64,000 bases of DNA from a virus (IMGVR_UViG_3300025765_000001); one strand, 5' to 3'. Positions 9,961 to 29,355 are shown, counted from the stretch's first letter. Numbers and translations: made by a program. Notes: generated from the sequence alone by a model not told the origin.

Positions 9961-10640
9961 AGTTCTAACAGATTGGGACTATAGAAACAAAATCTATACG
10001 AATGTGTTAGCTCCACCCCGGCGAAGCCGGGGTGGAGCCGGGGTGGAGCCGGGGTGGAGCCGGGGTGGAGCTAACATGCAGTTCTAACAGATTGGGACTA
10101 TAGAAACAAAATCTATACGAATGTGTTAGCTCCACCCCGGCTTCGCCGGGGTGGAGCTAGTCCTATCGCCTAGCTCGTGATTAGATGTGTAGGAACTCGT
10201 GCGGCCCACGAGTTTTTATAGACCGGTCTGTATGTAGGCGGGTTTCTAGGCCCGTCCGCAGTTCTAATAGATTGGGTCTATAGAAACAAAATCTATACGA
10301 ATGTGTAGGCGGGTTTCTAGGCCCGTCCGTAGTTCTAACAGATTGGGTCTATAGAAACAAAATCTATACGAATGTGTTAGCTCCACCCCGGCTTTGCCGG
10401 GGTGGAGCAGTTTAGCCCGATGGAGTTTAGGTTCGACCTCGGCTTTGCCGGGGTGGAGCAGTTTAGCCCGATGGAGTTTAGTAGTACGAGGTTCGACCTC
10501 GGCGAAGCTATATCTGAGCAGTTTAGCCCGGTGGAGTTTAGTAGTACGAGGCTCCCCGCCTGACGAATGTGTTGGCTTCCTATATCTGAGCAGTTTAGCC
10601 CGGTGGAGTTTAGTAGTACGAGGCTCCCCGCCGCCTGCTG
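9961..10640. repeat. complex direct-repeat/hairpin cluster (origin- or terminus-like)
   Basis: 4 copies of ~47-bp AGTTCTAACAGATTGGG(A/T)CTATAGAAACAAAATCTATACGAATGTGT (9961, 10080, 10260, 10331); 11-bp GCCGGGGTGGA x4 (10026-10070); GAGCAGTTTAGCCCG(A/G)TGGAGTTTAG x4; CTCCACCCCGGC hairpins. Confidence 0.9.
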
Positions 10641-10880
10641 GCGGGGTGTGGGAAAGTGTTCCGGGTCTCGTACAACTCATCTTGTGCCGCCGACATACGG
10701 GCATTTTGGACAGTTGGACCAGAGGAGTTTAGTTGTACGAAGACCGGCCGTGGCCCGGTCCACGAGTTAAGTAGTACTGCAACAGTATTTATGGGTTTTT
10801 GGGCAGTTGGACCAATTGAGATGCGTTGTACAAGGGGGTTGTACGAGGGGGTTTTGACAACCGAGGCACGAGGAACTATC

Positions 10881-11090
10881 ATGACCAGGAAAGACTTCGA
10901 GATGATCGCTGAGGCGGTAGCCGAGGCTCGTGAGGTTCTGAAGCAAGATCAGGCCCATAACGGTCCGGTGCTGGCTGACAGCGAGTGGGCCTACATCTTC
11001 AACCGGGTGGGGGAGTCGTTGGTACGGCAGCTTCGCCGGTCGAATCCGCAGTTTGACGCTGAGCGGTTTGTGAAGGCGTGTCGGCAGTAA
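10881..11090 (+). CDS. small hypothetical (MTRKDF...NPQFDAERFVKAC type)
   Basis: motif + CACGAGGA leader. Confidence 0.75.
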   Translation: MTRKDFEMIAEAVAEAREVLKQDQAHNGPVLADSEWAYIFNRVGESLVRQLRRSNPQFDAERFVKACRQ

Positions 11091-11211
11091 AAGTGGGCGG
11101 ATGGCTGACAAGTCATGATTAAGTTGTCGGCGGACTGCGGATGCGGGGTTTGTAGACCGATCTAGTTACGTGGTACAAGCGAGGCCGGGTTAATTAACGC
11201 ACGAGGGAACC

Positions 11212-11643
11212 ATGAAGCATAATTTCACGAAGAAGCAAGTAATGAGTGTGGCTCAGACGGGTCTGGAAAAGGCCGTCGCTGAGTGGCTCTGCGACCGGGC
11301 GGACGACTACGACGGTGATCCGTGCGGGCCGCTCCGTGACTTGTTTCAGGGCGGCTGCATGAGTGGGATGGTGTCGCATCTAGTTTATTATTGTGACACG
11401 GTGCCGTTCTACGAGCAGCACAAGGCGGACATTTGGGCCTTGGGCATCGAGCAGGCCGAAGACTTCGGCAACAAGAATGTGTTCGAGTTCTTTGCCGGGC
11501 TGAACGTGGGCAACCTAGGCGACCTGGGAGACTACAATCAGGTTGCGAATGGTTTGGCGTGGTACGGCTTTGAGGAAGCGGCTCGCCGGATTGAGAACGC
11601 CCTGAACAGCCTTGATGAAGAGGATGAGGATGATGAGGACTAG
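11212..11643 (+). CDS. acidic phage hypothetical protein
   Basis: GC.SGMV..LVYY.DT..FY...N.LAW.GFEE pattern typical of phage early proteins; motif upstream. Confidence 0.8.
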   Translation: MKHNFTKKQVMSVAQTGLEKAVAEWLCDRADDYDGDPCGPLRDLFQGGCMSGMVSHLVYYCDTVPFYEQHKADIWALGIEQAEDFGNKNVFEFFAGLNVGNLGDLGDYNQVANGLAWYGFEEAARRIENALNSLDEEDEDDED

Positions 11644-12050
11644 AAACAAAAACACCTGACAGACCGGATAGGATTTCCCTTCTCCGATCTGTCAGGTGGA
11701 AGCCTCCATTACATGAGTAGTAAGGCTTTCGCCTCCCTGGGTCATGCAGGGGTGAGGCTTTTTCAGCCTTGCGAGTTGCTTGTTTAGGGCTTCCCGCTTG
11801 GCCCCGATTACCTTACTGGTCTCGCATTCGGCTGTGAGACCGAACGTGATTTTTGGATAATCGAGTTGCTTGCCGGTGTTCTCCGTCAAGCGTTGGTCTC
11901 AATTTAATGATTCGTGGCCGGAGTTCAATAGCTCTTGGCGAATTTTTTCGAGATTTTCTCATCTGGTTGGCTCGTCTCGACTTGGGGAGTTTAGTTGTAC
12001 GGGGCGAGTGTGGAAAAGTTGTTGATAACTCAAGAGGGACCAGAATAACG

Positions 12051-12299
12051 ATGCCATTTCCGACTGATGTGAGAGATATCCGGCCTGGAGAAACCGTTGA
12101 GAAGGTGATGCCGCACAGCGAAGTGTGTATGCACATGCGGGTTGCGGGCAAGTGGATGAAGGTCCGGCTTCTTGAATCGGGCCGCATGTGCCAGTTATAC
12201 TTCCTGGACTTCAAACCGTTCAGCAGCCCGATTACAATTGGCGAGGCCGGTATTTTTCACCGGGACGACACGTTCTACTACTACCCAGACCTGGGCTAG
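12051..12299 (+). CDS. hypothetical protein
   Basis: motif 11988 + GAGG leader. Confidence 0.65.
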   Translation: MPFPTDVRDIRPGETVEKVMPHSEVCMHMRVAGKWMKVRLLESGRMCQLYFLDFKPFSSPITIGEAGIFHRDDTFYYYPDLG

Positions 12300-12366
12300 T
12301 TTAGTTACGAAACGTGTGATGCGGCGGTCACAACCCTTGAGGGTGATCAGGAGAATAGTGGCATCG

Positions 12367-12522
12367 AATGTACTGGGTGCCACGAAATCTTCTGTGACAA
12401 CTGCTACGACTGTAGCAAGGGCGATGGTTGCCACTGTCACGAGCAATGTACTGGGTGCCACGAAATCTTCTGTGACAACTGCTACGACTGTAGCAAGGGC
12501 GATGGTTGCCACTGTCACGAGC
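12367..12522 (+). repeat. exact 78-bp tandem duplication encoding Cys/His-rich unit CTGCHEIFCDNCYDCSKGDGCHCHEQ
   Basis: two identical copies, period 78; frame lacks its own start. Confidence 0.9.
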
Positions 12523-12619
12523 AGGATTACGAAGTACTCATCATCCACCGGGGGTGATTTGTAGTACAGTGAGGGTTGAGCGAGACAACCTGAGTCCCTA
12601 AGCATGAGGGGGTTACACA

Positions 12620-13180
12620 GTGGCGAAACCGATGACCCCGGTGGACCGACCGAAGCTGGAGGCTGCACTTCGGGAGGCAGAGAAGAACGGACCGCTCGCC
12701 AACATGGGTGAGTTGTGGAAGCGAGTTGCCGAATTATACAATGCCAACCCTGGCGTGCAGCAGATCACGTTCAGCGTGGTCTTGTTGCGGGTCAAGGAGT
12801 GGGGCATCCAGGTCAAGACGCAGCCCGGTCGCAAGGGCGGGCCGATGAGCGAGGAGCATAAGCAGGCCTTTGCCGTCAGCCGTGGGAAGAGGACGCCCAG
12901 GGCTGAGAAGATGAAGGAATTCAAGACCTTCGATCTGCTCCGTGCGGAGTTGGGCAAGGATAATCGTCGTCGGTTTCTGCCGGTGGTTGATGCTGCCGAG
13001 AAGGGCAGCCTGCGGGCGGCGATCAAACTGACCTGCCTGGACTGTTGCAACTGGCAGACTTCGGAAATCAAATTGTGCGGCATTGAGTCCTGTGCAATGT
13101 TCCCGCACCGGCCCTACAAGCTAGGGCAGGTGGTCGAAGTCGATGAGGGCGATGAAGAGATGGACGAGGCCGAAGGATGA
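12620..13180 (+). CDS. hypothetical protein with C-terminal Cys cluster
   Basis: AIKLTCLDCC...IKLC....C.MFPHRP. Confidence 0.8.
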   Translation: MAKPMTPVDRPKLEAALREAEKNGPLANMGELWKRVAELYNANPGVQQITFSVVLLRVKEWGIQVKTQPGRKGGPMSEEHKQAFAVSRGKRTPRAEKMKEFKTFDLLRAELGKDNRRRFLPVVDAAEKGSLRAAIKLTCLDCCNWQTSEIKLCGIESCAMFPHRPYKLGQVVEVDEGDEEMDEAEG

Positions 13181-13232
13181 ACTGGCCGAGGTCGTTTGAC
13201 TATGAGAACGGCCCGCCTTCGGCGGGCCGTTC

Positions 13233-14009
13233 TTGTCGGTCTTGATGAATTGTGAAACGCAGCACTTCCCCGTAGATGTTTACGCCGCAGTCGTTGCACC
13301 ACAGGGCCGACTTTGTACAACTAAACTCAGTCAGTCAGCGACAAAAGATAGATTTCCGCTGCATGAGGAGGACGAAGATGGTGAGAAACGCTTCAAGGTG
13401 CCTCAGCCGGAAACCCAGATCACGGTATATGTCGTGGCGTGGCAGTACAACACCGGGGTCGGGTTCGACTGGTATCGTCGCCCTGGCGATGCTGATGCCG
13501 CCTACGAGGAAGAGAAGGGCAACGCTGACGAGATGGCTGATGAGGGGTGGTCGGCCTATCGTTTCGACTATGTTGTGTCCTCGAAGATGAGCGACGAGCA
13601 GATTACGCAGTTGATCGACTCTGAACTGGACGATCTGTATGTCAAGGCCACGGAGAAGCACGAAAACGTCCTCGACAAGTACGGCAAGAAGTTGAGCGAG
13701 ATCAAGCAGAGCCGAGGCGTGGTTTACAAGGCGGTGTCGTTCTGCTACACCAACAAGAGCGGCGGCACGAACATGATACAGTGCGAATCCCCCAAGCTGA
13801 CCCAGTTCCAGCGGCTCTCGGCCCGCTACAAGGATCAGAAGGTGAAATGGTTGGCCGAGTTTACGATCCAAAAGCAGTGGCACGACTACGAGACGGGCGG
13901 GCGAATGATCGGCTTGCCGGTCAACAAGGAACTGAAAGCGTTCCTCAAGCGGCACGCTCATCCTGACAAGCAGGTGATCTACGTCAGCCAGCACGACCTG
14001 TTGAGATAA
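13233..14009 (+). CDS. hypothetical protein, 5' end uncertain (possibly chimeric)
   Basis: long ORF; first ~100 nt contain an inverted motif copy. Confidence 0.55.
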   Translation: MSVLMNCETQHFPVDVYAAVVAPQGRLCTTKLSQSATKDRFPLHEEDEDGEKRFKVPQPETQITVYVVAWQYNTGVGFDWYRRPGDADAAYEEEKGNADEMADEGWSAYRFDYVVSSKMSDEQITQLIDSELDDLYVKATEKHENVLDKYGKKLSEIKQSRGVVYKAVSFCYTNKSGGTNMIQCESPKLTQFQRLSARYKDQKVKWLAEFTIQKQWHDYETGGRMIGLPVNKELKAFLKRHAHPDKQVIYVSQHDLLR

Positions 14010-14058
14010 GTCGTACAGGCGAGACCGGTGACAAAACTATTCTCTGGAGGACCGAGCA

Positions 14059-14499
14059 GTGAGCGATACCCTTGTGAACGCCTTGAAACTCATCAAGGCC
14101 CTGCACGACAAGCCTGAGTGTGGGGCGTTGTTCGTGCAGTTCAACCAGTCGGTGCGGGAGCAGGTGTTGCTCGCACCGAAAACGCTGGAGCAGTTGACAG
14201 CGGCAATCGACGTGGCCGAGAAGCGGGCGGTCGAGCCTGAGTACGTCTCTGTGATCGTGGTTCGCAACGACGTGGTGGACCAGAACTATCTTTTCGTTGG
14301 GCCGAGCCGCATCATTGCGGCGTCCGCCGAGGAGAAGTTCAAGGAACTGGTGAAGGGTGAGGGCCTGGAGCCGGACGACCTGGAGGCCGTGCTGGAGGAT
14401 GGCTATTGGGAGTTCAAGGACGGCAATGGTTCTGTCTGTATCAACTGGCCTGAGCGTCTTGCAGCAACGACTCTGGGCCGGGGTCTCAACGTCAAGTAA
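14059..14499 (+). CDS. hypothetical protein
   Basis: motif 14004 + GGAGG. Confidence 0.75.
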   Translation: MSDTLVNALKLIKALHDKPECGALFVQFNQSVREQVLLAPKTLEQLTAAIDVAEKRAVEPEYVSVIVVRNDVVDQNYLFVGPSRIIAASAEEKFKELVKGEGLEPDDLEAVLEDGYWEFKDGNGSVCINWPERLAATTLGRGLNVK

Positions 14500-14597
14500 G
14501 CCGAGGGGCTATCGAAACCCTAGGCGGCGTGCCGCCTAGGGTTTTTTGTGTTGTACTGGGTGAGTTTAGTTGTACGGTGAGGAACGAGGAGGGCACG

Positions 14598-14819
14598 ATG
14601 GACGAACAAGAAGCGACCAACAAACTCGAAAAACTGGTGGGCAGTGTGGACTGTTGTTTCCGCCTGATGCGGCTCTATGTGAGTTGCGAGCAGGCGGCAT
14701 CTGGCAACCGATTCACTTTGCAGAAGCTATCGACTGCCGAGGAGCGGTTTCGCAAGCGTGCGAAGGAAGAGGGCTATAGCCAAGCGGCTATCAACCACTA
14801 CCTGAACCACATTTGCTGA
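14598..14819 (+). CDS. hypothetical protein
   Basis: motif 14563 + GAGGAGG. Confidence 0.7.
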   Translation: MDEQEATNKLEKLVGSVDCCFRLMRLYVSCEQAASGNRFTLQKLSTAEERFRKRAKEEGYSQAAINHYLNHIC

Positions 14820-14838
14820 AAAATCTACATCAACCCAC

Positions 14839-14866
14839 TTGACATGGACACTAGCTAGACTAGAAT
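14839..14866 (+). promoter_or_regulatory. sigma70-type promoter
   Basis: TTGACA-16-TAGAAT. Confidence 0.65.
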
Positions 14867-15131
14867 GCTTCATGTAGAAAGGACGTGGACTATGCAAACC
14901 GCACTTGGCACAATCACTCACCGTTACTGGTGGGATCAGGGCATCTACTTCCGGCAGGCTCTTCGGGGTGGGCCGGTGGAAACCTGGAACAGCCAGACCT
15001 GGGCTTGAGCTATGCCAAAAGAAGGTATGAATAAGCAGAAAGGCTGGTTGAGTTTCGGCGTACAAGAGAGATCGAGGCGATCGGCGGGGGCCTTCAATCC
15101 TGCCACAACAGCACGAGGAGGGTTCTATACT

Positions 15132-15512
15132 ATGCGTCCCATTTCCGAAAAGACCCAGGCCGTTCGCAACTTGCTCGACAAGAACCGTGGCACAACCTGG
15201 GGCGATGCGAAGGAAGGTCTCATCAAGGCGAAGCTGTTCGAGGACAACGACGCCGACGAGAGCTACTTCAACAACGTCAAGTCCCAATACCTCAAGCGGC
15301 TCGCCAGCGGCGGCAAGCGGAAGGCCCGGCGTGTGGCCCGGCCTCGTGTGGCTCGCACGGCGACGGTCGAGATCAGCCTGCCGGATGCCGTGGCTCTCAT
15401 CAACGCCAACGGCGGCAGCGTGACGGCGGTTCGTGGCCTGATCGCCAACCTGACGGCGGCAGTCGCCGTGGTCGAGGCCCAGGCATCGGCACTGACCAAG
15501 CTCGCCAGCTAA
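15132..15512 (+). CDS. basic hypothetical protein (possibly DNA-binding)
   Basis: motif 15051, CACGAGGAGG leader; K/R-rich centre. Confidence 0.75.
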   Translation: MRPISEKTQAVRNLLDKNRGTTWGDAKEGLIKAKLFEDNDADESYFNNVKSQYLKRLASGGKRKARRVARPRVARTATVEISLPDAVALINANGGSVTAVRGLIANLTAAVAVVEAQASALTKLAS

Positions 15513-15660
15513 CCCTCGTGCTGCCCTTGGCTCAAGGCCAGGGCCGGGGGAAGCAGACCCAGGGGCGGCGTCCGCCCCTGGGTTTTTCTAGCCTATCTGA
15601 TGAGTTAAGTTGTACAGGGCAGGGCGGACAGGACCAACAACTAGCACGAGGGACCAGACC

Positions 15661-16044
15661 ATGACCAAGAATCCCGTCGAGACCGGCGAGCTTATCCCGA
15701 TCACCACGCACGGCAGCCTGAACGTCATTGCGGCTGGACCGCTGACCAAGCAGCCGGGCACGATGCCATATCGCATCGTTATCCTCCAGGACTCCGATGG
15801 CAAGTACAGCGTCCACAATCAGGTCTACTCGGACCTGGGCAACCTCGTAGACCCCGACGTGAGGCTGCTGGCCGAGTTGGGGGCAACTTCCGACAAGCCG
15901 CCTTGTGCGAGCCTGTGCCACGGTCACTACTTCGGTGCCGGGGCTGAGGGGCTGACGAAGGCCACGATCAAGTTCTGCGAGAAGGTGCGGGACCATGCCC
16001 CGATGGTCGAGTCCATCTATCGGGAGGCCGTCGTAGTTTCGTAG
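15661..16044 (+). CDS. hypothetical protein
   Basis: motif 15603 + leader. Confidence 0.75.
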   Translation: MTKNPVETGELIPITTHGSLNVIAAGPLTKQPGTMPYRIVILQDSDGKYSVHNQVYSDLGNLVDPDVRLLAELGATSDKPPCASLCHGHYFGAGAEGLTKATIKFCEKVRDHAPMVESIYREAVVVS

Positions 16045-16097
16045 TACAGGGCAGGGTGAGGCGAGATAACTTTACCACTGGCACGAGGACCAAGACA

Positions 16098-16400
16098 ATG
16101 GCAGGCAAACGCAAGGCCAAGGCGAAGAAAGCCGAGTTCAAGGGTGTGAACATCGACTTCTCGTTCAGCGGCTACATCAACGGGGCACGGATCACGAAGG
16201 TAACGGAGAATCTCAAGCGTGCTCCGTACTTCCGGGTCATCAGCACCGAGGGCATGACGCCGAAGAAACTGGCTGCTAGCTTGAACAGCGGCAAGTACAC
16301 GATCAGCCTGGGCGACTTCCTGTACGAGAACAGCGAGGACCAGGAGATCGAGATTACGGACTTCCAAGAGTCCTACGAACAGTCGGGCGACGAGGACTAA
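16098..16400 (+). CDS. hypothetical protein
   Basis: motif 16035 + leader. Confidence 0.75.
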   Translation: MAGKRKAKAKKAEFKGVNIDFSFSGYINGARITKVTENLKRAPYFRVISTEGMTPKKLAASLNSGKYTISLGDFLYENSEDQEIEITDFQESYEQSGDED

Positions 16401-16455
16401 CCCTGTTGCGTAGTACATGTCAAGGCGACCAGCAACCACGAGGGAGGATACATCC

Positions 16456-16701
16456 ATGTTCGAGAACGATATGGCTTCCGAGGGTCAGTTGACCGTCGCC
16501 GATCTGCGGAAGCGGACGAAGGGTGTGGACGGTCGGGCCGTGGTTTGTGTGTGCGTGGATGGATTCTCTTACGCCCCGATCACGGATGCCAAGTTCGATG
16601 CACCGAGCGAGCAGGAGAAGGCGGAAGGGGCCATCGGCGTGTTCCTGCTGATGCCCGATCCGTCCAGCGAGTTGATCCAGTCGCTTCCTGGTGGTGAGTA
16701 G
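16456..16701 (+). CDS. hypothetical protein
   Basis: motif 16404 + leader. Confidence 0.7.
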   Translation: MFENDMASEGQLTVADLRKRTKGVDGRAVVCVCVDGFSYAPITDAKFDAPSEQEKAEGAIGVFLLMPDPSSELIQSLPGGE

Positions 16702-16853
16702 CCGCAAGGCGAGCCGGTACACCAGTGAGTTCCTATAGCTGGGCCGAAAGGGAGTTGCCCCTGGCCGGGTGGTTGTCACTGCCCGGCCAGGATTTATAAA
16801 ACCGGTTGAGTTGAGACGTACAAGAGAGGGCGAGGAATACAAGCTAATGTGAT

Positions 16854-16881
16854 TTGACATCGGTTGCGAGTTACTTATAAT
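16854..16881 (+). promoter_or_regulatory. sigma70-type promoter
   Basis: TTGACA-16-TATAAT; flanks resemble the promoter at 1294-1321. Confidence 0.8.
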
Positions 16882-16919
16882 GCTGGGTGAGGACTGACCC
16901 CTAGTACAAGGACAAGACC

Positions 16920-17900
16920 ATGACTAAGGAAAAGCTGACTCCGAGCGAAGTGGCCCTGCGACAACAGAAGATGTGGGCTGTTGTGTGTGGCCTAAGCAAG
17001 CTGCCGAACCTGCATCAGCCCTTGTTCGGCAAGAAGGGCGAGACCGAGGCGGGCGAGTACCACGAGCGGCTCGACTACATTCAAGAGATCGTCACCGAAG
17101 GATATGCGGAACCCGGCTACACCGATCCCCAGGTCGGTATCGTCACCGGCAATTGGAACGACGAAGAGCCGTGCATCTTGAGCGAGTTCGTGGACCCCGA
17201 CCACGAGGACACGGAGCCGGGTGAAATCATCACCCCTGGCCGTGCCCTGGAGCTTTTGGGGTGTGAACTGGAGTGGAGTGACGAGTGGGACTCGTGCCAT
17301 GACTGCATGAAGTTGGTGCGGTCCCAGCCCAACAGCTACGGCTGGAAGCGGGCGGCGTGGGTCAGCGACGACTGCGAGGTTTTCTGCCACGAGTGCGTCA
17401 AGGCCGATCCGTCGGACTACATTGAATCGCTGGTGGGCGTGGACAACAACGGCATCACCATCGAAGATATCGACCTGGAGAAGTATGGTTTCGTTAAGCT
17501 CCAGGACAATCTCGAAAACGGCTGGTACGGTGGTCAGAAGGCCGACCCCAAGGTGGTCGGCAAGGCCCTGCGGAAGCAAGGCATCGACCGCTACGTGTTC
17601 GTGATCGACAGCGTGGGTCAATTCGATCTGAGCTTCAGCGTGTGGGTGGACAAGGAACAGCTTGCGGCCACGGAGCTTGACCCTGAAAAGGGGTTGTCTT
17701 CCAGCGACACCGATGCTGAAGAAGACCCCGCCCATGTCATGCAGACATACCTATGTGACACTTTCAGGGCGATGGCTGAAGTGAAGCCAGGGGATGGGCC
17801 TGTCATCGTGCGGCCCGACCCTGAAGACCCGCACAAGGCCAAGGCCCGGCGTGTGTCTCTTGAAGACTTTATCGCTGGCAAGGCCCTGGACGACGAGTGA
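16920..17900 (+). CDS. acidic hypothetical protein with Zn-finger-like CxxC pairs
   Basis: 326 aa; CHDC...CHEC. Confidence 0.8.
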   Translation: MTKEKLTPSEVALRQQKMWAVVCGLSKLPNLHQPLFGKKGETEAGEYHERLDYIQEIVTEGYAEPGYTDPQVGIVTGNWNDEEPCILSEFVDPDHEDTEPGEIITPGRALELLGCELEWSDEWDSCHDCMKLVRSQPNSYGWKRAAWVSDDCEVFCHECVKADPSDYIESLVGVDNNGITIEDIDLEKYGFVKLQDNLENGWYGGQKADPKVVGKALRKQGIDRYVFVIDSVGQFDLSFSVWVDKEQLAATELDPEKGLSSSDTDAEEDPAHVMQTYLCDTFRAMAEVKPGDGPVIVRPDPEDPHKAKARRVSLEDFIAGKALDDE

Positions 17901-18231
17901 GGCGGGTGCAACCCCAGGGGTGCTGGTCCACCCCTGGGGTCTTTTCTACATAGCGACGAAGATACGCAAACGAGCGAAGCAAGCCGATGTCCATGTGTCG
18001 GACAGTGGCACCGTCTATTTAGTCACGCCCCTGAGCAGTGGGTCGAAGAGAACGTCCAGCTTGAGCCATACCAGTGCTGGCATCAAGACCACGCCAGGGC
18101 GAAGGGCCGGTCCACCAAAAGCCCGGCCTCCAGGCCGGGGCCGTTTCCTAGATCGACCTAGTTTAGTAGTACAAAGGAGGGCGGACCAAACAAGGCACGA
18201 GCCAAGACCAGACAACGGAAAGGAACATATC

Positions 18232-20061: not shown

Positions 20062-20379
20062 ATGAAGCCGACTTACGACGAACTACACGATGCCCTGGAT
20101 GCCCTAGTGCATGAACTAGAGGAGTGGGACGTTCCGCAAACGGATGAAGAGGGCGAGTTCGGTCCCGATACTGCATTGGGCCACGCTCAGGCCCTCTTGA
20201 AGCGAGTCGAGGAACCAAGCTACGCCTTCCAGGTGCGGGACGGGGCACTATACGAAGGCGAATTGCTCCTGAGCGAGTGGGACGACGGCGAGTTTGTGCC
20301 GAGCCGCAAACTGCTGGAAATGCCTTCCAGCTACCAGCAGCAGGCCGACGCCTACGCACGAACCAACGGGCCGAGCTAG
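20062..20379 (+). CDS. acidic hypothetical protein
   Basis: GAGGA RBS, MKPTYDELHD... Confidence 0.6.
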   Translation: MKPTYDELHDALDALVHELEEWDVPQTDEEGEFGPDTALGHAQALLKRVEEPSYAFQVRDGALYEGELLLSEWDDGEFVPSRKLLEMPSSYQQQADAYARTNGPS

Positions 20380-20434
20380 TTACGTCGTACAGGGAAGGGC
20401 GAGATAACTTTACCACCACACGAGGACACGAAAC

Positions 20435-20866: not shown

Positions 20867-21165
20867 TAAAAGACAACGGGCGGCTTTGCCGCCCGTTGTC
20901 TAGTCTTCCTGAGTTGAGTTGTACAGGGCGTTGTTGGAGAAGTACCCAGACGCCAGCCCTGGTGTGTTCAATGCCGAGTATTCGTCCGAGTGGGACGATC
21001 AACGAAATGCAAATACGATCCCACGCTCAAGCTGTGCTTCGACATCGAGGACAGCGGCGAGGCTCCTGACGGCACACTGACCGACGAGTGGGTCTGGTTC
21101 GCCGATGTTTAGTGGTACAGGACAGGACAGGGCGAGGCGAGAACAAGACACGAGGAACTAGACCG

Positions 21166-22188
21166 ATGCGACCCGCAAGCAACTACCTCAAGCTGGTGGA
21201 CGAGGGCAAGCTGCTGCCTTACGACGAGTACGACCATATCATCGTGAGCTACAGCGGCGGCAAGGATAGTCTGGCCCTGACCCTACTGGCGATTGAGGAT
21301 ATGCCGCTCGAAAAGGTCGAGCTTTGGCACCAGCACGTTGACGGCGAGCCGAGCCAGGACAACGGCCTGATGGACTGGCCTTGCACTCATGGTTACTGCA
21401 AGGCCACGGCTTCTGTGTTCGGTTTCCCGCTCTACTTCCAGTGGAAACACGGCGGGTTCCTGGGCGAAATGCTCCGAGAGAACAGCCGCACACAGGGCAT
21501 CAGCTATCAAGCGGTCGATGGCCGCACGATCTACCTGCCGCCCTCCGACCGTGGCAAGCTGGCGACCCGTCGCCTGTTCCCCCAGGTGTCGGCGGACCTG
21601 TCTGTGCGGTGGTGCAGTGCGTATCTCAAGATCGACGTGGCCCGGCGTGTCATCAACAACGACCCTCGCTTCGACAATGCGAAGGTGTTGTTCCTGACGG
21701 GCGAGCGTCGGCAGGAGTCCACGGCCCGCAGTAAGTACGCCGAGGTCGAAGAACACGCTTGCAGCGGCAAGCGGCGGCGTGTAGACCAGTGGCGTATGGT
21801 GATCGACTGGACCGAGGAAGATGTCTGGAACATCATCAAGACTCATCATGTTGTGCCACACCCAGCGTATCGGCTGGGTTGGGGCCGGGTGAGTTGCATG
21901 GCCTGCATCTTCGGCGATGCGGACCAGTGGGCCAGCGTGCGGAGGATCGCACAAGAGCGGTTCAACAGGATCGCCGCCTATGAAACCGAGTTCGGCAAGA
22001 CCATCAAGAAGGGCCTGACCGTGCTGCAACAGGCCGACAAGGGCCAGTCCTTCGTTGATGATGCACCGGAATGGCTCATCAAGCTGGCGATGAGTCCGAA
22101 CTACCCGACCGGTCAAGTGTTCTTCTCGCACGGCCAGCCGTGGGAGTTGCCTGCGGGAGCGTACAAGCGGTGCGGTGGACCGAGCTAA
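21166..22188 (+). CDS. phosphoadenosine-phosphosulfate (PAPS) reductase family protein
   Basis: PP-loop SYSGGKDS, RWCSAYLKI, GERRQES..R, HPAY..GWGRVSCMACIF. Confidence 0.9.
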   Translation: MRPASNYLKLVDEGKLLPYDEYDHIIVSYSGGKDSLALTLLAIEDMPLEKVELWHQHVDGEPSQDNGLMDWPCTHGYCKATASVFGFPLYFQWKHGGFLGEMLRENSRTQGISYQAVDGRTIYLPPSDRGKLATRRLFPQVSADLSVRWCSAYLKIDVARRVINNDPRFDNAKVLFLTGERRQESTARSKYAEVEEHACSGKRRRVDQWRMVIDWTEEDVWNIIKTHHVVPHPAYRLGWGRVSCMACIFGDADQWASVRRIAQERFNRIAAYETEFGKTIKKGLTVLQQADKGQSFVDDAPEWLIKLAMSPNYPTGQVFFSHGQPWELPAGAYKRCGGPS

Positions 22189-22282
22189 CAAAAGCACCCT
22201 GGGCCTTCGGCCCAGGGTGCTAGATCATCCTAGTTGTGTTGTACAGGACAGGGCGACGAGAACCCAAACACGAGGTATACCG

Positions 22283-22708
22283 ATGACCCCTGAGCAGATC
22301 AAGACCAAGTATGAACCCCGCATCCTCGTCATCCTCAACGCAATGCGGACGGCGTTGAATGAGGCGGGCCACAACTGCGGCGAGTCGTTTGACATGAGTT
22401 CGGACGACTACCGCTGGTCCATGATCATCAATGGCGATGATGGCAGCAACGGCATCAACATCAGCTTCATCATCGCCGAGAGTGAGTATTGGGACGGCGA
22501 GGAAAACGGCGTCAACTTTATGGTGGACGTGGTTGAGTTCGGCGGTCGCATGTTGGGAGGGCTGTGCCCGTACAACTACAGCAACAAGGTATGGGTCAGC
22601 CGTGATGATGAGGACGCTATCGAAGAGCGGTTCCGCATCTTCGAGCAGGCCGACCCCGCCGACATCATCAAATGCGTGGAACAGTCGGACATTTGCCCAT
22701 CGGCCTAA
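22283..22708 (+). CDS. acidic hypothetical protein
   Basis: motif 22232 + leader. Confidence 0.75.
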   Translation: MTPEQIKTKYEPRILVILNAMRTALNEAGHNCGESFDMSSDDYRWSMIINGDDGSNGINISFIIAESEYWDGEENGVNFMVDVVEFGGRMLGGLCPYNYSNKVWVSRDDEDAIEERFRIFEQADPADIIKCVEQSDICPSA

Positions 22709-22850
22709 GTCTGCGGTGAAGGCTCAACCCAATGAGGTAGGCCAGAGCGGATGGGAACAGCCCCAGGGCGAAAGCCCTGGGGCTGGCCGGTATACCAGGA
22801 GTTGTGTTGTACAGGGAAGGGCGAGGAACGAACCAACACGAGGACCAACC

Positions 22851-22951
22851 ATGTCAGTCAAGATGCGTCAGCACGTCGAGGCAACCCGTTGTCTACAACG
22901 CTGACACCCATGCTCAACGTCCTGGTCTATGAGTGGTTTCCAGACTGGTGA
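22851..22951 (+). pseudogene. internally deleted unit remnant
   Basis: starts MSVKMRQHVE (paralog of 23207 gene), then joins a sequence duplicated at 23551-23611. Confidence 0.7.
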
Positions 22952-23000
22952 GGTTGCGTAGTACAGGCGAGGGCGAGACACCTAACACGAGGACCAGACC

Positions 23001-23159
23001 ATGTGGGAAAACGCTTCCTATGAAACCAAGCTACGGATTCTCGAAGCCGAGTCCACGGTGATGATCGGCCTGCTGCTTGAGGATGTCACACTCGTTGACA
23101 TGATCCGGCGTGGTGAATCGCAGGCCGCTTGCCTGAACTACATCAACGAGAACTGGTAG
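23001..23159 (+). CDS. 52-aa hypothetical (not in ORF track)
   Basis: motif 22952 + CACGAGGACCAGACC-ATG; MWENASYETKLRILEAE... Confidence 0.7.
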   Translation: MWENASYETKLRILEAESTVMIGLLLEDVTLVDMIRRGESQAACLNYINENW

Positions 23160-23206
23160 AGTTGTGACGTACAAGGCAAATCAACCTATCACGAGGAACC
23201 AAGACC

Positions 23207-23536
23207 ATGAGCGTCAAGATGCGTCAGTGTGTCGAGCGGATCATCGCCCGTCGTGTTATTTTGGACCTGAAGGCGGCTGGCTTCCTGCTCAACATCAACA
23301 ACGGCGGGGATGACTATGAACTTCCCCGGCCCACGAATAACATCAAGGAATTGCTGGCGGCGATGTTCGCCACGGACGATGAGCGGCTGTACGTCTTCCG
23401 GCCCGGCCAGGAAAAACCCTTCGCCTGGGTGTGGTTCGTGTACGGAAATGATGGGTGGGACGTGGTGAGCGACTACACCACCAATATCGACGCCTACATG
23501 AAGGGGGCCAGCGAGTTAGCCAACAAGTACAGCTAA
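23207..23536 (+). CDS. hypothetical protein
   Basis: motif 23160; WVWFVYGNDGWDVVSDY. Confidence 0.8.
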   Translation: MSVKMRQCVERIIARRVILDLKAAGFLLNINNGGDDYELPRPTNNIKELLAAMFATDDERLYVFRPGQEKPFAWVWFVYGNDGWDVVSDYTTNIDAYMKGASELANKYS

Positions 23537-23667
23537 GATACGTCGTACAGGGCAACCCGTTGTCTACAACGCCGACACGTCCTGGTCTATGAGTGGTTTC
23601 CAGACTGGTGAGGTTGTGTAGTACAAGGCAGGGCGAGGCGGAAACGAACCCCAATACGAGGATGACC

Positions 23668-24300
23668 ATGAAGAAGCTCATCGTTCGGATCGAACACGAC
23701 AGCGACATTGAGAACCCCTGCGAGAACGGCGATAACCAGTGGACGCTGTATAGCTTCTGCTCTCGCCATGTCAACTTCAAGCATCCCGATGACCTAGGCG
23801 TGACCGTGGGCCGCAATCACGTCGAGAAGGTCAGCAACCGCACGCTCAAGCGTCGGCTCGAATGTGGGCACGCCTTCTGGCTGGGATACTTCGAGCATGG
23901 ACAGTCCTGCTGGTTCAGGACCAATACCCCGCCCGTTGGAGTTGAGTTCCAGTGGGACGGCGTTCGCTATGCTGGCCTGCTGGTCTGGGAACACAAGCCG
24001 TCCGAAATGGGAGCCAAGACCTATGAGGACCGGGCCAAGGACGCCGACCTTTTCCTGCGAGTCTATACGTCCTGGGCCAATGGCGAAGGGCTGTACTACG
24101 TCATCGAAGATGAGGACGGCGAGCATGTCGATTCGTGCGGCGGCTTCTACGGCTGCGATTCGGACTACATGCTGCGAGAAATGGCCCATGAATTGATCGG
24201 CCACGAGTTCGAGGTCCAAGGCTATGCAGACTACCTGGAAGATGATCTGCGATCCATCGTTCGAGAACTGGAAGCCAAGCAGGAAACGACAACGGCCTAA
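23668..24300 (+). CDS. phage hypothetical protein
   Basis: motif 23612; WD.....G....Y..W.NG...DSCGGFYG pattern. Confidence 0.8.
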   Translation: MKKLIVRIEHDSDIENPCENGDNQWTLYSFCSRHVNFKHPDDLGVTVGRNHVEKVSNRTLKRRLECGHAFWLGYFEHGQSCWFRTNTPPVGVEFQWDGVRYAGLLVWEHKPSEMGAKTYEDRAKDADLFLRVYTSWANGEGLYYVIEDEDGEHVDSCGGFYGCDSDYMLREMAHELIGHEFEVQGYADYLEDDLRSIVRELEAKQETTTA

Positions 24301-24556
24301 CATGGCCGGGCTGCACCCGCCGCAAGGCGGGTGCAGCTAGATCATCTAAGTTGTGTTGTACAGGGCAGGGCGAGATGGATGACATGACCGTCACTGGCGA
24401 CGAGATGGAGAGCGAACGCACTACCGATGCATAAGGTGTGCGTGTCGAACATTACTTGCAATCTACAACCGTGGTGATTTTCTAGTGCGAATCTAAATCG
24501 GTCTAGTTGTGTTGTACTAGAGAGGACGGAATCTCACAAGCACGAGGACCAGGACC

Positions 24557-24925
24557 ATGAGCGTCGATGCTGTCGAGGAAATGCCGCACGGCAACCGTAT
24601 CGTCAATGCCTTCGAGCGTAAAAAGGCCGAGATCGCCAAGCGAATCAAGGACGGCCTGACCACGGCGGAAAAGGTCGAGATCGCCCGCAAGAGCCTAGAC
24701 ATGAACCTGGAGGAATATATCTCGCTCCAAGAAGTCAAGTCCCTGGCCGTCGCAATGGAACTGCTCACCGTCGATGAGGGCCAGTCCATCTATGCGGCCC
24801 TTGAGGGCGGCATCGAGATATTCAACCGCCAGCCGGTCCATATCAAGCACGTCATCAACGGCTTGCACGTTCAGCTTCTCATCTGGAAGCGTGCAGGCTG
24901 CCCGGTCCCGAAGAAGAAAGACTAG
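24557..24925 (+). CDS. hypothetical protein
   Basis: motif 24505 + leader. Confidence 0.75.
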   Translation: MSVDAVEEMPHGNRIVNAFERKKAEIAKRIKDGLTTAEKVEIARKSLDMNLEEYISLQEVKSLAVAMELLTVDEGQSIYAALEGGIEIFNRQPVHIKHVINGLHVQLLIWKRAGCPVPKKKD

Positions 24926-24981
24926 GCCAGTTGTGTAGTACATGAGAAGGCGGATCAGTCACCTAATCAGGAGTTAGACTA

Positions 24982-25539
24982 ATGGCGACCATCACTCGTG
25001 ACGAACTGGAAACCATGCTTCGAGGTCTGGACCGCCCTCTCATCGCTACCCTGCTCACCGACGTTGAGCCGGAAATGGTGAAGAAGGATCGGGAAACCAA
25101 AGAGCCGAACCCCTACCTGGGCCGTGTCCGCAAGCAGTCCAGGGTCAACGGTATCATCGGTGCGTGGAACTACACGAACGCCGTCAACAACCAGCGGATG
25201 CGTGAGTCCGACGCCGAAACCGTGGAAGAGGTCGAGGCCGTGCCGATCTTCGAGGCACTGCCGAGAGCCTGGGGCGAACGGCTGACCGGAACTGCCCTGG
25301 TCCACCACAAGGGCCAGTATTACGTCGAGGTCAAGGTCGAGCGGGCTATCGAAACGGTCTACATGATCGACGGCAGACCGGCGAGCGAGGCCGAGGTCGA
25401 GGCCATCCGGCGATACCTGCCCAAGCGTGAAAACGAAGGGCAGCGGCAAGAGGTCGAGAAAATCGTGGTCCTTCGTGATTACAAGCTCGACTCCATCAAG
25501 GCCGTGCGTGTCGGCGGCGAACAGTATGACGTGAACTAA
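24982..25539 (+). CDS. phage hypothetical protein
   Basis: motif 24929, AGGAG RBS; NPY.GRVRK...Y.NAVNNQ. Confidence 0.8.
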   Translation: MATITRDELETMLRGLDRPLIATLLTDVEPEMVKKDRETKEPNPYLGRVRKQSRVNGIIGAWNYTNAVNNQRMRESDAETVEEVEAVPIFEALPRAWGERLTGTALVHHKGQYYVEVKVERAIETVYMIDGRPASEAEVEAIRRYLPKRENEGQRQEVEKIVVLRDYKLDSIKAVRVGGEQYDVN

Positions 25540-25644
25540 TCACAGGTTAGGCGGGCCATACGGCCCGCCTAACCTAGATCGGCTGTGTTCAGTTGTACGA
25601 GTGAGGGCGAGGTCGGAAGCGATAGCTCTAACCACGAGGTGACC

Positions 25645-25851
25645 ATGCACGCCAAGAAGGACAAGTACGACGGCTCAGGATACTACGAACTGCGGCACGA
25701 AAGCCGCTTGCTCAAGCGGGGAAATTATACCTACTGCGTTGCAGCCCTGCAATCGGTTTGCGGTTACTCCATCGAACGGGCTGCGGTCGAAGGCTACACC
25801 ATCCTGCCCATCGCCATGAACTGCTTGACCGGCGAGAACAAGATCGGCTAG
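25645..25851 (+). CDS. hypothetical protein
   Basis: motif 25586 + leader. Confidence 0.7.
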   Translation: MHAKKDKYDGSGYYELRHESRLLKRGNYTYCVAALQSVCGYSIERAAVEGYTILPIAMNCLTGENKIG

Positions 25852-25913
25852 TGAGGTTGTGTTGTACAGGGCAGGGCGAGGCGAATGACAAAACTATTCC
25901 GCACGAGGTCAAC

Positions 25914-26174
25914 ATGACTGACAAAACCAAGACCGAGGTTCGGCTGACTTCTACCCCCTGGATCAACACGCCCGGCGTGCTGCGATGGACAATCAACGGC
26001 TACAAGTTCAAGAAGAACCGCAAGGCCATGCGGTGGATTCTCACCAAGGGCTACAACCTGACCGATGAGGTTGCGGACGGCCTGCTCAGCGGCAAGATTC
26101 CGCACCGCATCGAGGGCGAGGACGTGGTTTTCGAGGTCGAGGACGAGTACAAGCGGGCTGCCGTTGTTATGTAG
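25914..26174 (+). CDS. hypothetical protein
   Basis: motif 25855 + leader. Confidence 0.75.
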   Translation: MTDKTKTEVRLTSTPWINTPGVLRWTINGYKFKKNRKAMRWILTKGYNLTDEVADGLLSGKIPHRIEGEDVVFEVEDEYKRAAVVM

Positions 26175-26220
26175 TACAGGACAGGGCGAGTAAGACAACA
26201 AACCCAAACCGAGGTAAAAC

Positions 26221-26799
26221 ATGAACACGATCAAGCGAACCCTGAACCTAGGCAAGATCGCCCTGACCGGCAAGACCAAGCGAAACGAAGTCAGCCTTGA
26301 GCTTACCATCGGCACCGAGGGCACTGCAAGCGTTCAACGTGATTGGGATACTCTCGCCGAGGTCAAGGGCGGTGTGCGTATCTCCATCTGCGGCCACGTC
26401 TGGAACGCAACTACCCGCACCAAGTTGGCGACGGGCGGGCAGATCATCGACGTTATCTGCACCTACTTCGACCACGATAGGCGGGTCATGCGGATTTGTG
26501 CCCTCTGGGACCGCTGGCACCTAAACGACATGAAGGCCGGGACCAGAGTACAGACTGCCTACCTGGACGGCTACAAGGCGGCTCTGTTCAACGCCGGATC
26601 GGTCCTCAAGGGGGCCGAGGCCGTGGCCCAGGTCGAGACGTTCCGCCGTCTGTTCCAAACGAACTACCATAAGACCGCAAGCGGCATCCTCAAAGCCGCT
26701 GGCCTGCTGGTGGACCGGGGCTATAAGTACGGGTCTGCGTGGCTGATCGAACAGCCCCCGGCCCAGGTCATCGAAGAACTACAGGAGTTGTTCAGCTAA
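26221..26799 (+). CDS. phage hypothetical protein
   Basis: GGQI...WDRWHLNDMKAG...GYKYGSAWL pattern. Confidence 0.8.
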   Translation: MNTIKRTLNLGKIALTGKTKRNEVSLELTIGTEGTASVQRDWDTLAEVKGGVRISICGHVWNATTRTKLATGGQIIDVICTYFDHDRRVMRICALWDRWHLNDMKAGTRVQTAYLDGYKAALFNAGSVLKGAEAVAQVETFRRLFQTNYHKTASGILKAAGLLVDRGYKYGSAWLIEQPPAQVIEELQELFS

Positions 26800-26898
26800 C
26801 ACCTAGAGGCCCGCCCCTACGGGGCGGGCCTCAGTTGACCGACTGTGTTGAGTAGTACAGAGCAGGGCGACCAAGCAAACCATGTTGCAAGGACTACC

Positions 26899-27069
26899 AT
26901 GAACGCCGATCGTGCGAAAGACAAGGCTCGAACCCTGGCCCGCAAGCAGGCCCGCAAACAGAAGCAGGACGGCTGGTTACCCATCACCCAGCAGCGGCCC
27001 ATGAAGCACGACCGGCCTCGCAAGGCACCGAAGGGCTGGGAATACGTCGAAACCAGCGTGGAGGATTAG
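26899..27069 (+). CDS. small basic hypothetical
   Basis: motif 26846. Confidence 0.65.
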   Translation: MNADRAKDKARTLARKQARKQKQDGWLPITQQRPMKHDRPRKAPKGWEYVETSVED

Positions 27070-27124
27070 TCTAGTTGGGTCGTACAGGCGAGGGTGAGCA
27101 ACGAAACCCCAAGGAGCTAGTCCC

Positions 27125-27397
27125 ATGACCAAGACTGTGCTTGCGTTCCTGGCGGATGGCGGCGACGGCAAGGCCCTGGTGGGCCGTCAGGTCAACTTCG
27201 TTCATTGCAGCGGCAATACCAAGACGGCCCGCCTGGAGTCGGTCAACGACAACGGCACGGCTACCATTCGCTACAACGGGCGAACCGATGCGGACTGGTA
27301 TTTGCCCTTCGCCCTGCCCCTGGGCGAGTTGACCCTGGAGCTAGGGGCCGATGAACTGCCCCCGTACTATGACGCCAGACCGCTCACCCAACGGTGA
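27125..27397 (+). CDS. hypothetical protein
   Basis: motif 27073, AAGGAG. Confidence 0.7.
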   Translation: MTKTVLAFLADGGDGKALVGRQVNFVHCSGNTKTARLESVNDNGTATIRYNGRTDADWYLPFALPLGELTLELGADELPPYYDARPLTQR

Positions 27398-27491
27398 GCG
27401 GTGGGCCGGGACTAGTCCCGGTCCTAAACCGGGTGAGTTGAGTAGTACGACTGAAGGCGAGGAACGATCACCCCGAACTGAGGACAACGCA

Positions 27492-27851
27492 ATGCACCCG
27501 AAGCTCAGCAAGCTCACCCGCCTGGGAAACAGCGTCTCTGTGTTCGTGCCTTCGCTTATCCACGCCACGGAGAACGACGGTGGAGCCAAGCAGAAGGAAT
27601 GGACCGACCGGCTCATGGTGGAACAGGCCAAGATGTTCGGCGGCGTCTCGGTCTACACCGTCGAAGGCGGCTGGTGGTCCGGCACGCATGGCTTGATTCG
27701 TGAAGGTGTCAAGGTGGTCCAGAGCATGGCTTCCGATGCCGACCTGGACGCCCATATCAAAACCGTCATCGGTCTGGCTGAACGAATGAAGGCTGACATG
27801 AGCCAGGAAGCGGTCTCGGTCATGGTCAACGGCGAAATGTATCTGGTCTGA
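27492..27851 (+). CDS. DUF3574-like small protein
   Basis: FGG.S.....GGW......LIRE.V..V...M.QEAV. Confidence 0.65.
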   Translation: MHPKLSKLTRLGNSVSVFVPSLIHATENDGGAKQKEWTDRLMVEQAKMFGGVSVYTVEGGWWSGTHGLIREGVKVVQSMASDADLDAHIKTVIGLAERMKADMSQEAVSVMVNGEMYLV

Positions 27852-28231
27852 CCAGAGCGACCGGCCCATAGGCCGGTCGCAATTTGCACCAGTCCGTGTA
27901 CAACGCATCTCACCAGGTCAAGAACAGGAGCGGGACAGCTAGCAATTTTATTTCGCCCACCTGTGTTGAGTTGTACGGGGGCGGGTGAAGGCCGAAACAA
28001 CCAGTCGAACCGAGGGCATCGCAATGCGGCGTCTCTTCTCCCACGGGCGGCGTAAGCTGTTCGGCAAACCCGTCTGGAGCAGCGGCTTGACGAACTGATT
28101 GCCGACCGCAAACGGATCACCCAACACCAACACCATCTGGGCGAGGCTGAGATCGAGCGGCGTATCCGGGGCTGATCTAGTTGTGTAGTACATGCAAGGG
28201 CGAAGTCGGAAGCATCCTCAGAGTGTGTCTC

Positions 28232-28438
28232 ATGAAGCTGGCTGACCTGGGCAACTGCAAGACCGGCTACTGGGTCGGGGTCCAGACCGGCAAGAAGGTC
28301 GTAGCTGTCTCGCCCGTCTTCACCTACAAGCAGCAGGCCGAGGCATGGAACGACCAGCAGAATCTCCCTAGCCGTGCCCTGGCATGGACGTACAAGGAAG
28401 CGGCCCGCTCCAGCGGGCCGCTTCGATCGGCACCCTGA
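28232..28438 (+). CDS. hypothetical protein
   Basis: motif 28179. Confidence 0.6.
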   Translation: MKLADLGNCKTGYWVGVQTGKKVVAVSPVFTYKQQAEAWNDQQNLPSRALAWTYKEAARSSGPLRSAP

Positions 28439-28474
28439 GTTAAGTAGTACAGGGTAGGGCGAGGAGGACAAAAC

Positions 28475-28705
28475 ATGATCCCGTTCCTGCTGGCTCTGCT
28501 GTTCCTGGCTTCCCCTGGCTTGATGGCCTTGCTCGCTGGCGGGCTGTCGTATTACGGCTATCGCCGTCACACGGTCCTGGGCGAGTGGTCCTGGGATGCC
28601 TTCGGCGATGGGCTGGTGATGTTCGCTGCCGTCTGGCTCGGTGCTGGTTGGCTGCTTTGCCCCGCTCATCTACATGAGCGGGGCGTGATGAGTAGTACAG
28701 TGTAG
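28475..28705 (+). CDS. small membrane protein
   Basis: two hydrophobic segments; GAGGAGG RBS. Confidence 0.65.
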   Translation: MIPFLLALLFLASPGLMALLAGGLSYYGYRRHTVLGEWSWDAFGDGLVMFAAVWLGAGWLLCPAHLHERGVMSSTV

Positions 28706-28741
28706 GGCGAAGTGGACGACACACAACCCAAACCGAGGACG

Positions 28742-29068
28742 ATGAACATGGCTCACCGACGTTGCGAAGACGCCCCCTGCTGCGGCTGCTGCCCGGACTA
28801 CACCCAGGCCGAACCCTACGACCCGGAGTTCATGGACCACGACTTCGACGACGTGGACCACGACTTCGATGACGTGGACCACGACTTCGACGATGACGTG
28901 GACCACGACTTCGACGATGACGTGGACCGGTCCTATGATGACGAAGAGCCGGACCAGTTCCGTGACGACGTGGAGGCCGATGCCGACGTGCTGCGGTCTG
29001 CTGGCTTCGGGACCGATGAGGACTACGGTGCCTATGAGGACATGGGCGATTGGGGCTATGGCGACTAG
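28742..29068 (+). CDS. very acidic protein with RCEDAPCCGCC motif and DHDFDD(D)V repeats
   Basis: 21/24-bp tandem repeats ~28833-28930. Confidence 0.75.
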   Translation: MNMAHRRCEDAPCCGCCPDYTQAEPYDPEFMDHDFDDVDHDFDDVDHDFDDDVDHDFDDDVDRSYDDEEPDQFRDDVEADADVLRSAGFGTDEDYGAYEDMGDWGYGD

Positions 29069-29088
29069 GGCTAGGCCCTAGCTCTGTG

Positions 29089-29127
29089 TGATATGGACCG
29101 GTCCATGCAATGGACCGGTCCATATCA
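29089..29127. repeat. nested perfect palindrome at right edge of array
   Basis: TGAT-ATGGACCGGTCCAT-GCA-ATGGACCGGTCCAT-ATCA. Confidence 0.9.
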
Positions 29128-29355
29128 TTATCAACAATGTGAAAATTATTTTGAAAAACCTAAAGAGTTAGGTAGTACATGGGGGGTAGGCGGCAGCCAT
29201 TACGCTTTTTTCTTTTGATCTCGTGTTTCAAAACTAGAAATACAGGAATTTGCATTTCTCCTATAGAAACTTGGTTCCATCTCATTGGGTGGTATAAAAG
29301 AAAAGAAAAAAGCAGGCGTAGCGGCCTGCTTTTTCCTCCCAGTCCAGGGGTTCCC

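Follow-up and report, generated by a model that had tools for sequence, protein, structure and literature searches.

A repeated 13-nt motif in a block of small genes

The window analysed here is a 64,000-nt stretch (bases 342608-406607) of the 435,946-bp virus record IMGVR_UViG_3300025765_000001, which is given in IMG/VR as linear and ~85% complete. It contains an 18.7-kb block with ~37 plus-strand open reading frames (ORFs) that show coding potential, and roughly 31-33 of these ORFs have their own copy of a 13-nt motif (hereafter the 13-mer) ahead of the start codon. The initial annotation of the window had described ~40 co-oriented copies of this motif over positions 10475-29178, and the count is borne out: the pattern WGWTNNGTNGTAC has 37 matches in the window compared with 0.21 expected from shuffled sequences, 34 of them on the plus strand and all within the block. 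When a 36-nt weight matrix was run over the whole genome, 45 sites scored at least 12 bits, compared with 1-7 matches in each of five composition-preserving genome shuffles. Forty of these sites are on the plus strand of the window (10475-29166) and three on the minus strand there, while the remaining two are minus-strand sites a short way left of the window, both in duplicated cassettes that are described below. Apart from these two sites, the motif is confined to the block; the initial annotation had not noticed it elsewhere in the window.

In the source phage (whose array is designated W), the consensus reads T-n-G-A-y-C, five unconserved positions (N5), AGTTnnGTnGTAC and rGGnnAGGGCGA, followed by a CACGAGG(A) Shine-Dalgarno leader and an ATG. 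The G-rich tract, the leader and the near-constant distance to the ATG had all been noted initially and are real, with the ATG 35-50 nt after GTAC in the window array and at a median motif position of 57 when the four arrays compared here are pooled. The consensus proposed at first was correct for the 13-mer and its downstream parts, but it was incomplete in that the upstream TnGACC element and the hairpins had been missed. In the usual full unit, or cassette, a GC-rich tetraloop hairpin is followed by TnGACC-N5-AGTTnnGTnGTAC-rGGnnAGGGCGA, the CACGAGG ribosome-binding leader and the ATG. Hairpins of -18 kcal/mol or stronger occur within 48 nt upstream of 43% of the 87 sites in the four arrays, compared with 10% of controls (p = 2e-8); most of them have GC stems of 10-14 bp and stable tetraloops, and a U-run is present only in a minority. 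The sites that lack a strong hairpin overlap the end of the previous gene. Such overlap had been reported for the sites at 14004, 16035, 19477, 20378, 26165 and 28686, and both ORF coordinates and sequences confirm that the motif is kept there even though it shares bases with the final codons or the stop of the upstream gene (at 19477, a TAG stop codon inside the motif accounts for the AGTA variant). In six genes of the W clade, the G-tract runs directly into the Shine-Dalgarno sequence. The motif is not the only context of the CACGAGG leader, which is also found downstream of TTGACA-N16/17-TATAAT promoters in the neighbouring 330-345-kb region. Ribosome-binding sequences in this genome vary by region, with CACGAGG(A) in the array and in the small-gene regions at 310-370 kb and AGGAG elsewhere.

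The block is also richer in GC than its surroundings, in agreement with the first impression (58% vs 50%). The GC content at third codon positions (GC3) reaches 0.76 in the array (window 10850-29100), 17 points above the rest of the genome (0.59). Coordinates of the array and its main features are collected in Table 1.

Table 1. Features of the array and its edges in the window (positions counted from the first base of the window)
Feature	Position	Strand	Details
Whole array: ~40 co-oriented motif sites and ~37 small plus-strand genes; hyperplastic accessory block	10475-29178	+	Motif scans; ORF coding potential; GC 58%, GC3 0.76
Head control region: four ~90-nt units that pair a TCTATACGAA box with a GC hairpin; 11-bp tandem repeats	9949-10408		
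Five to six gene-less motif copies at the array head (tandem promoters?)	10475-10831	+	Relative L014 has six
DUF7222 gene, 143 aa	11212-11643	+	Pfam match above cut-off
Perfect host-type promoter TTGACA-N16-TATAAT	16854-16881	+	Between the motif variant at 16809 and the gene at 16920 (tandem promoters)
PAPS-reductase-family gene, 340 aa	21166-22188	+	Pfam match above cut-off; 51-aa remnant in relative L013
Type cassette	22193-22285	+	13-bp-stem hairpin 22193-22221, TAGATC, motif AGTTGTGTTGTAC at 22232-22244, G-tract AGGACAGGGCGA, leader ACACGAGG, ATG at 22283; aligned with L012 in alignment A2
Internal duplication of a gene tail and motif, 84% identity	22880-22977	+	Second copy at 23551-23637
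185-aa gene of a widespread phage family	24982-25539	+	Alignment A4; present in all four arrays
Cassette of gene end, hairpin, motif, leader and first 13 nt of an ORF	26765-26911	+	147 bp; recurs inverted, with 100% identity, at genome 341599-341453 (~1 kb before the window starts)
Terminal cassette: two TATGGACCGGTCCATA-like palindromes, AT-rich stretch and last motif	29085-29186	+	No gene behind
Right edge: ParB_N-like gene and N6/N4 DNA methylase gene	29356-31534	-	Absent in L012; methylase homolog at the array end in G001

Conservation of the motif in related phages

The source genome encodes a major capsid gene of the gp23 family and two ORFs of the sigma-70 family, at L009:1216-2034 and L010:1474-2025, and no near relative of it was found among 50,697 deposited phage genomes. 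Jumbo phages of "group 2" have a gp23-type capsid and phage sigma factors and lack an RNA polymerase of their own (Iyer et al. 2021, PMC7824862). On sequence features, the profile of the source phage matches this group, pointing to a gp23-type, T4-related jumbo phage. By a single exact-pattern scan of metagenome contigs, we obtained three partial relatives (L012, from Ga0187892; L013, L014 and L015, from Ga0163150), all of which are fragments. They share 65-88% nucleotide identity with the array and have 23, 20 and 15 motif sites. The 52 sites from L012, L013 and L014 give an identical 37-nt logo, with synonymous divergence of 0.4-1.5. A more distant relative, the 56.7-kb contig IMGVR_UViG_3300031885_000016 (G001), was reached via a profile of the 185-aa array gene. 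Its first 21 kb contain 38 AGTTWAGTTGTAC sites, all in one orientation, and the 36 kb that follow are devoid of them; its right flank is syntenic with window positions 30.8-64 kb and beyond (27-63% amino-acid identity, mostly 43-63%).

In the three partial relatives and in G001, the 13-mer array occupies the equivalent genomic position. Only three array genes are common to G001 and W, and the G001 sites have neither the TnGACC element nor the G-tract, with ATT instead following the 13-mer. Because the 13-mer is kept in G001 despite near-complete turnover of the genes behind it, it appears to be the conserved core of the longer element. Arrays of all four phages are also 8-11 points higher in GC than their own flanks. 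Beyond these phages, neither viral contigs nor 185,579 species genomes contained the exact extended motif of the W type, and the G001-type word matched G001 itself plus single chance occurrences, with no further relative. Two array or flank proteins and the two sigma proteins, each searched singly against viral contigs, also yielded no relative, and a literature search for the motif words returned only primers.

Gene turnover and breakpoints inside cassettes

Comparison of these phages reveals extensive gain, loss and translocation of array genes. In the stretch shared by W and L012, orthologs exist for 14 of the 16 W genes, the other two being specific to W, and L012 has about six extra promoter-headed slots. 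Two genes are translocated in L012, namely W25914, which lies behind the PAPS-reductase gene, and W23207, which lies behind the ortholog of W25645. In L013, the PAPS-reductase gene is cut to a remnant and three W genes are missing. Synonymous divergence between W and L012 is 0.4-0.6 for collinear array genes and 1.3-1.5 for the two translocated genes, a difference that fits a mosaic ancestry of the array. In the one flank gene measured, it is higher (2.6). The ratio of nonsynonymous to synonymous divergence (dN/dS) of array genes is 0.15-0.40, which indicates purifying selection.

Many of the changes end within cassettes. In alignments A1 and A2, hairpin, motif and leader are conserved and unrelated ORFs start at or just before the start codon, and in the Ga0163150 phage an exact copy of one cassette, together with the first ~10 nt of its ORF, is found beside a tRNA gene (A3). 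Two cassettes of the window have inverted copies 28-34 kb to the left, where the 26765-26911 cassette recurs as an exact copy and a 102-bp, 97% identical copy of the terminal cassette (genome 337455-337354) heads an AAA-ATPase gene, which is the first array gene in L014; since these near-exact 102-147-bp repeats bound an inversion, an assembly error is possible there. Of the similarity-block ends, 48% lie between -30 and +65 relative to a motif, vs 20% under the null, although this enrichment is weak evidence when taken alone, as such ends would tend to fall close to gene boundaries in any event. Individual breakpoints are scattered over the motif 5' edge, the leader, the start codon and positions 10-13 nt into the ORF. 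The earlier proposal that the motif makes genes exchangeable thus holds in so far as breakpoints between relatives lie inside cassettes, but they give no sign of a site-specific event at the GTAC palindrome. Recombination between promoter-leader cassettes looks homologous rather than site-specific. These cassettes (~40-60 bp) could provide the homology, because they are the only sequence repeated between units.

A phage-specific promoter class as the favoured explanation

The position and orientation of the motif, the terminator-like hairpins and the conservation between phages make a promoter class, as first proposed, the best explanation, for which the evidence is indirect. We consider it probable that the motif represents a phage-specific promoter class, often accompanied by a terminator, in a hyperplastic accessory block, and that its cassettes also drive gene shuffling. 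According to this explanation, AGTTnnGTnGTAC would be the promoter core, to which the W clade adds TnGACC upstream and rGGnnAGGGCGA downstream. In ~40% of units, the GC-rich tetraloop hairpin directly upstream would terminate the preceding gene's transcript or form its 3' end, and each small gene would form its own transcription unit. Recombination between cassettes would then delete, insert, translocate and copy genes. Transcription may start at or just after GTAC, because the genes with short leaders need their ribosome-binding sequence in the mRNA; these sequences could instead serve read-through transcripts from upstream promoters. A start just after GTAC would place AGTTnnGT at about -13 to -6. 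The T4 late promoter TATAAATA occupies -13 to -6.

The initial annotation had stated that the motif is not a sigma-70 promoter. This is correct for the motif itself, which has no -35/-10 geometry, but two or three TTGACA-type promoters do occur in the array. It had also considered a phage RNA polymerase as the reader, for which we found no support in the 436 kb available. PF00940 (T7-family RNA polymerase) had no match even at E <= 1, while a T7 control gave 9.9e-110. A multisubunit or YonO-type polymerase was rejected: neither the beta-type nor the beta'-type families (PF00562 and PF00623) gave a match, and a six-frame search for an NADFDGD-like motif was negative. As no polymerase gene is detectable, a phage sigma acting with the host core enzyme would be the most economical reader, and we regard host core polymerase with a phage sigma-70-family protein as plausible and as the likeliest reader of the motif. 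The host core polymerase would thereby be redirected by a phage factor, with one of the two sigma-70-family proteins as the leading candidate. The L009 sigma gene has its own terminator and a CTTTACA-N17-TATAAT promoter; its product might be made early from this host-type promoter and then turn on the array. With one sigma gene under a host-type promoter, the array would be delayed-early or middle. A weak hint in favour of the L009 sigma comes from LR756511.1: this genome lacks the motif, and of the two sigmas only the other, FliA-like one has a detectable homolog there.

Several other candidate readers were considered and rejected. The phage genome has no Sigma54_DBD domain, and the GG/GC invariants of sigma-54 promoters are missing from the motif. 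A late promoter of the T4 gp55 type does not agree with the finding that TATAAATA occurs only three times in the genome, that a gp55 homolog was not detected and that the motif is missing before structural genes. A SigB/FliA-style reading (with AGTT as -35 and GGGCGA as -10) was set aside in view of the six genes whose ribosome-binding sequence is fused to the G-tract and of the lack of the tract in G001.

In addition to the limits given above for block ends and for the inverted repeats, several observations weigh against the proposed explanation. The geometry is unlike the -35/-10 arrangement of the sigma-70 family, as the invariant part is one unbroken 13-mer that apparently reaches up to the start site. 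TnGACC lies only ~5 bp upstream of this block, compared with a spacing of 16-18 bp in bipartite sigma-70 promoters, and G001 has no upstream element at all. In eight G001 genes, the ribosome-binding sequence begins 3-5 nt after GTAC. The motif also resembles neither the FliA consensus nor T4 late promoters, and the homolog of the FliA-like sigma in LR756511.1 is 39% identical in a genome that lacks the motif. Finally, with the genome ~85% complete, a polymerase gene could lie in the missing part.

Alternative explanations

A bolder possibility, which we put forward only tentatively, is that the array represents an undescribed promoter type of a megaphage clade, in which a 13-bp element abutting the start site is read by an unusual sigma or by an unrecognised polymerase or other factor. 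The cassette might then double as the homology module of a self-expressing, GC3-rich gene-capture platform that swaps genes faster than the core diverges. The array in any case raises the question of which factor reads a 13-mer that appears to reach the start site in a phage without a recognisable polymerase.

It is also conceivable, though rather unlikely, that the promoter is read not by the host polymerase with a sigma factor but by an RNA polymerase that is phage-encoded or carried in the virion and has escaped recognition, or that is encoded in the missing ~15% of the genome. The element is contiguous and of high information content (13-25 bp), seems to abut the start and is followed by a purine/G-rich tract in the W clade, and such a contiguous, start-abutting geometry is that of single-subunit phage polymerase promoters. 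There is also a giant ORF of 4142 aa ~30 kb to the right of the array (window 59664-64000 and beyond; genome 402271-414699). However, a virion polymerase is not supported for this ORF: apart from a short Pfam hit of the WI12-like kind, it resembles only tape-measure proteins, and weakly so, in PHROG. The polymerase searches described above were negative as well. The group 2 jumbo phages, moreover, have been reported to have sigma factors and no polymerases.

We consider it improbable that the motif is a box for a phage DNA-binding regulator beside a weak host-type promoter, whether this regulator were a MotA/AsiA-like activator, a repressor or a switch based on GTAC methylation. The head repeats contain AGTTTAG twice per unit, the GTAC core is palindromic, a DNA methylase gene lies at the array edge in both W and G001, and the TACATT that follows the box in G001 resembles a -10 hexamer. 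In the W clade, however, TACAGG stands at this place, without the T that is critical at the last position, and conservation reveals no second -10-like element; in the short-leader genes, the distance from box to ATG would leave no leader.

An action of the motif in RNA, as an intercistronic processing or stability signal at which a polycistronic transcript is cut and whose hairpins protect the new 3' ends, seems quite improbable. Strict co-orientation with the genes, location just upstream of ribosome-binding sites and hairpins with stable RNA tetraloops, mostly lacking a U-run, would agree with such a role. But no enzyme for a sequence-specific 13-nt RNA cleavage signal is obvious here, no Rfam family matched in window 9000-30000, and both the tandem gene-less copies at the array head and the copies ahead of genes relocated to the opposite strand are hard to explain.

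A site-specific recombination site resembling integron attC, with a dedicated recombinase acting at the GTAC core, is hardly tenable: the palindromic core, the gene-sized units and the turnover between relatives would suit it, but no integrase or recombinase domain was detected when ten ORFs from the two flanks were scanned with Pfam, breakpoints spread over the cassette rather than gathering at GTAC, attC-like inverted repeats are lacking, and the fixed distance and orientation to start codons indicate an expression signal.

Comparison with known systems

If the motif is a phage-specific promoter, the closest parallel to its cassettes may be the promoter-early stem-loop (PeSL) cassettes in hyperplastic regions of T4-type phages (Arbiol et al. 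2010, PMC2839356; Comeau et al. 2014, PMC4122927). One sequenced PeSL mini-circle had its crossover between the Shine-Dalgarno sequence and the -10 box (PMC2839356, PMC4122927). Like these cassettes, the units described here are small combinations of stem-loop and promoter in front of many small ORFan genes, located in a variable block between conserved genes of a gp23-type phage (with the right flank syntenic in G001), and insertions, deletions, replacements and translocations end within them. The cassettes would thus act on gene order much as PeSL cassettes do. They differ in that PeSL promoters are strong host sigma-70 early promoters, whereas the core here is a non-sigma-70 13-mer and host-type TTGACA promoters are few. 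The hairpin is, moreover, present in only ~40% of units, and the array forms one contiguous block with a GC3 far above that of the remaining genome. If confirmed, these findings would carry the PeSL idea, in which cassettes of promoter and terminator serve as modules for recombination, to promoters outside the host sigma-70 class and to phages other than ordinary T4-like ones.

Promoter classes read by phage sigma factors, such as those of T4 gp55, of SPO1 gp28 and gp33/34 and of the sigma factors of group 2 jumbo phages (PMC7824862), are similar in that sigma-family genes are present, the conserved word is not of the host type and no RNA polymerase of the phage itself was detected. In contrast to the T4 late and SPO1 classes, the word here has an unrelated sequence, a search for a gp55 homolog was negative, structural-gene regions lack the motif and conservation reaches the putative start site and beyond. 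Promoters of the T7/T3/SP6 class share a contiguous conserved element of ~20 bp, a purine/G-rich start next to it and repetition before many genes, but no T7-family polymerase gene was found in the genome. The initial annotation had compared the block with the host-takeover modules of SPO1 and T5, to which it is similar in packing small genes, together with many promoters and terminators, into one dense stretch. Those early modules are driven by host-sigma early promoters and located in DNA that is terminal or enters the cell first. Integron attC arrays differ for the reasons given above.

The proposed consensus provides a testable promoter for an uncultured clade of phages of roughly 0.4-0.5 Mb and would delimit a co-regulated gene set. 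The block is also a natural search ground for host-takeover and anti-defence genes of these phages.

Genes of the block and other features of the genome

Most array ORFs have no Pfam or PHROG match, and one Atlas search added nothing informative on their function. Only the DUF7222 and PAPS-reductase-family genes pass the curated Pfam cut-off, and three array ORFs match PHROG families of unknown function. The family of the 185-aa gene was found in 32 IMG/VR loci (L020-L051). Its AlphaFold model is confident (pLDDT 92), and a Foldseek search found no solved structure matching it at E <= 0.001. Around homologs of this gene in unrelated low-GC phages (L038-L045), ~25 cassettes per 20 kb were observed, each with a terminator and a Bacteroidota-type promoter (TTGCAA...TTATCTTTG), and at another of its loci (L032) the word CTTGACATT occurs sixteen times. 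PeSL-like arrays look widespread on this basis, and the presence of homologs of the 185-aa gene in arrays with host-type signals supports, by analogy, an early-region, accessory character of such blocks.

Boxes like TCTATACGAA, TCTATAC(G/A)AA, recur in the head region of the relative L014, and the head control region of the window may be a regulator-binding region or a replication origin. ARAGORN identified 62 tRNA genes with 42 anticodons in the whole genome, located at 12-250 kb. Codon adaptation to these tRNAs was examined as a cause of the high GC3 and rejected, because an exact phage tRNA exists for 77.5% vs 74% of codons. Two of the tRNAs, with anticodons CTA and TCA (labelled Pyl and SeC), would read amber and opal stops.

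GTAC is only slightly avoided elsewhere in the genome, with an observed/expected ratio of 0.80. Both GCGC and CGCG are nearly missing across the 436 kb (4 and 0 observed vs ~800 expected each), which suggests strong avoidance of restriction sites. A perfect tandem duplication of 79 bp is also present at window positions 12367-12523.

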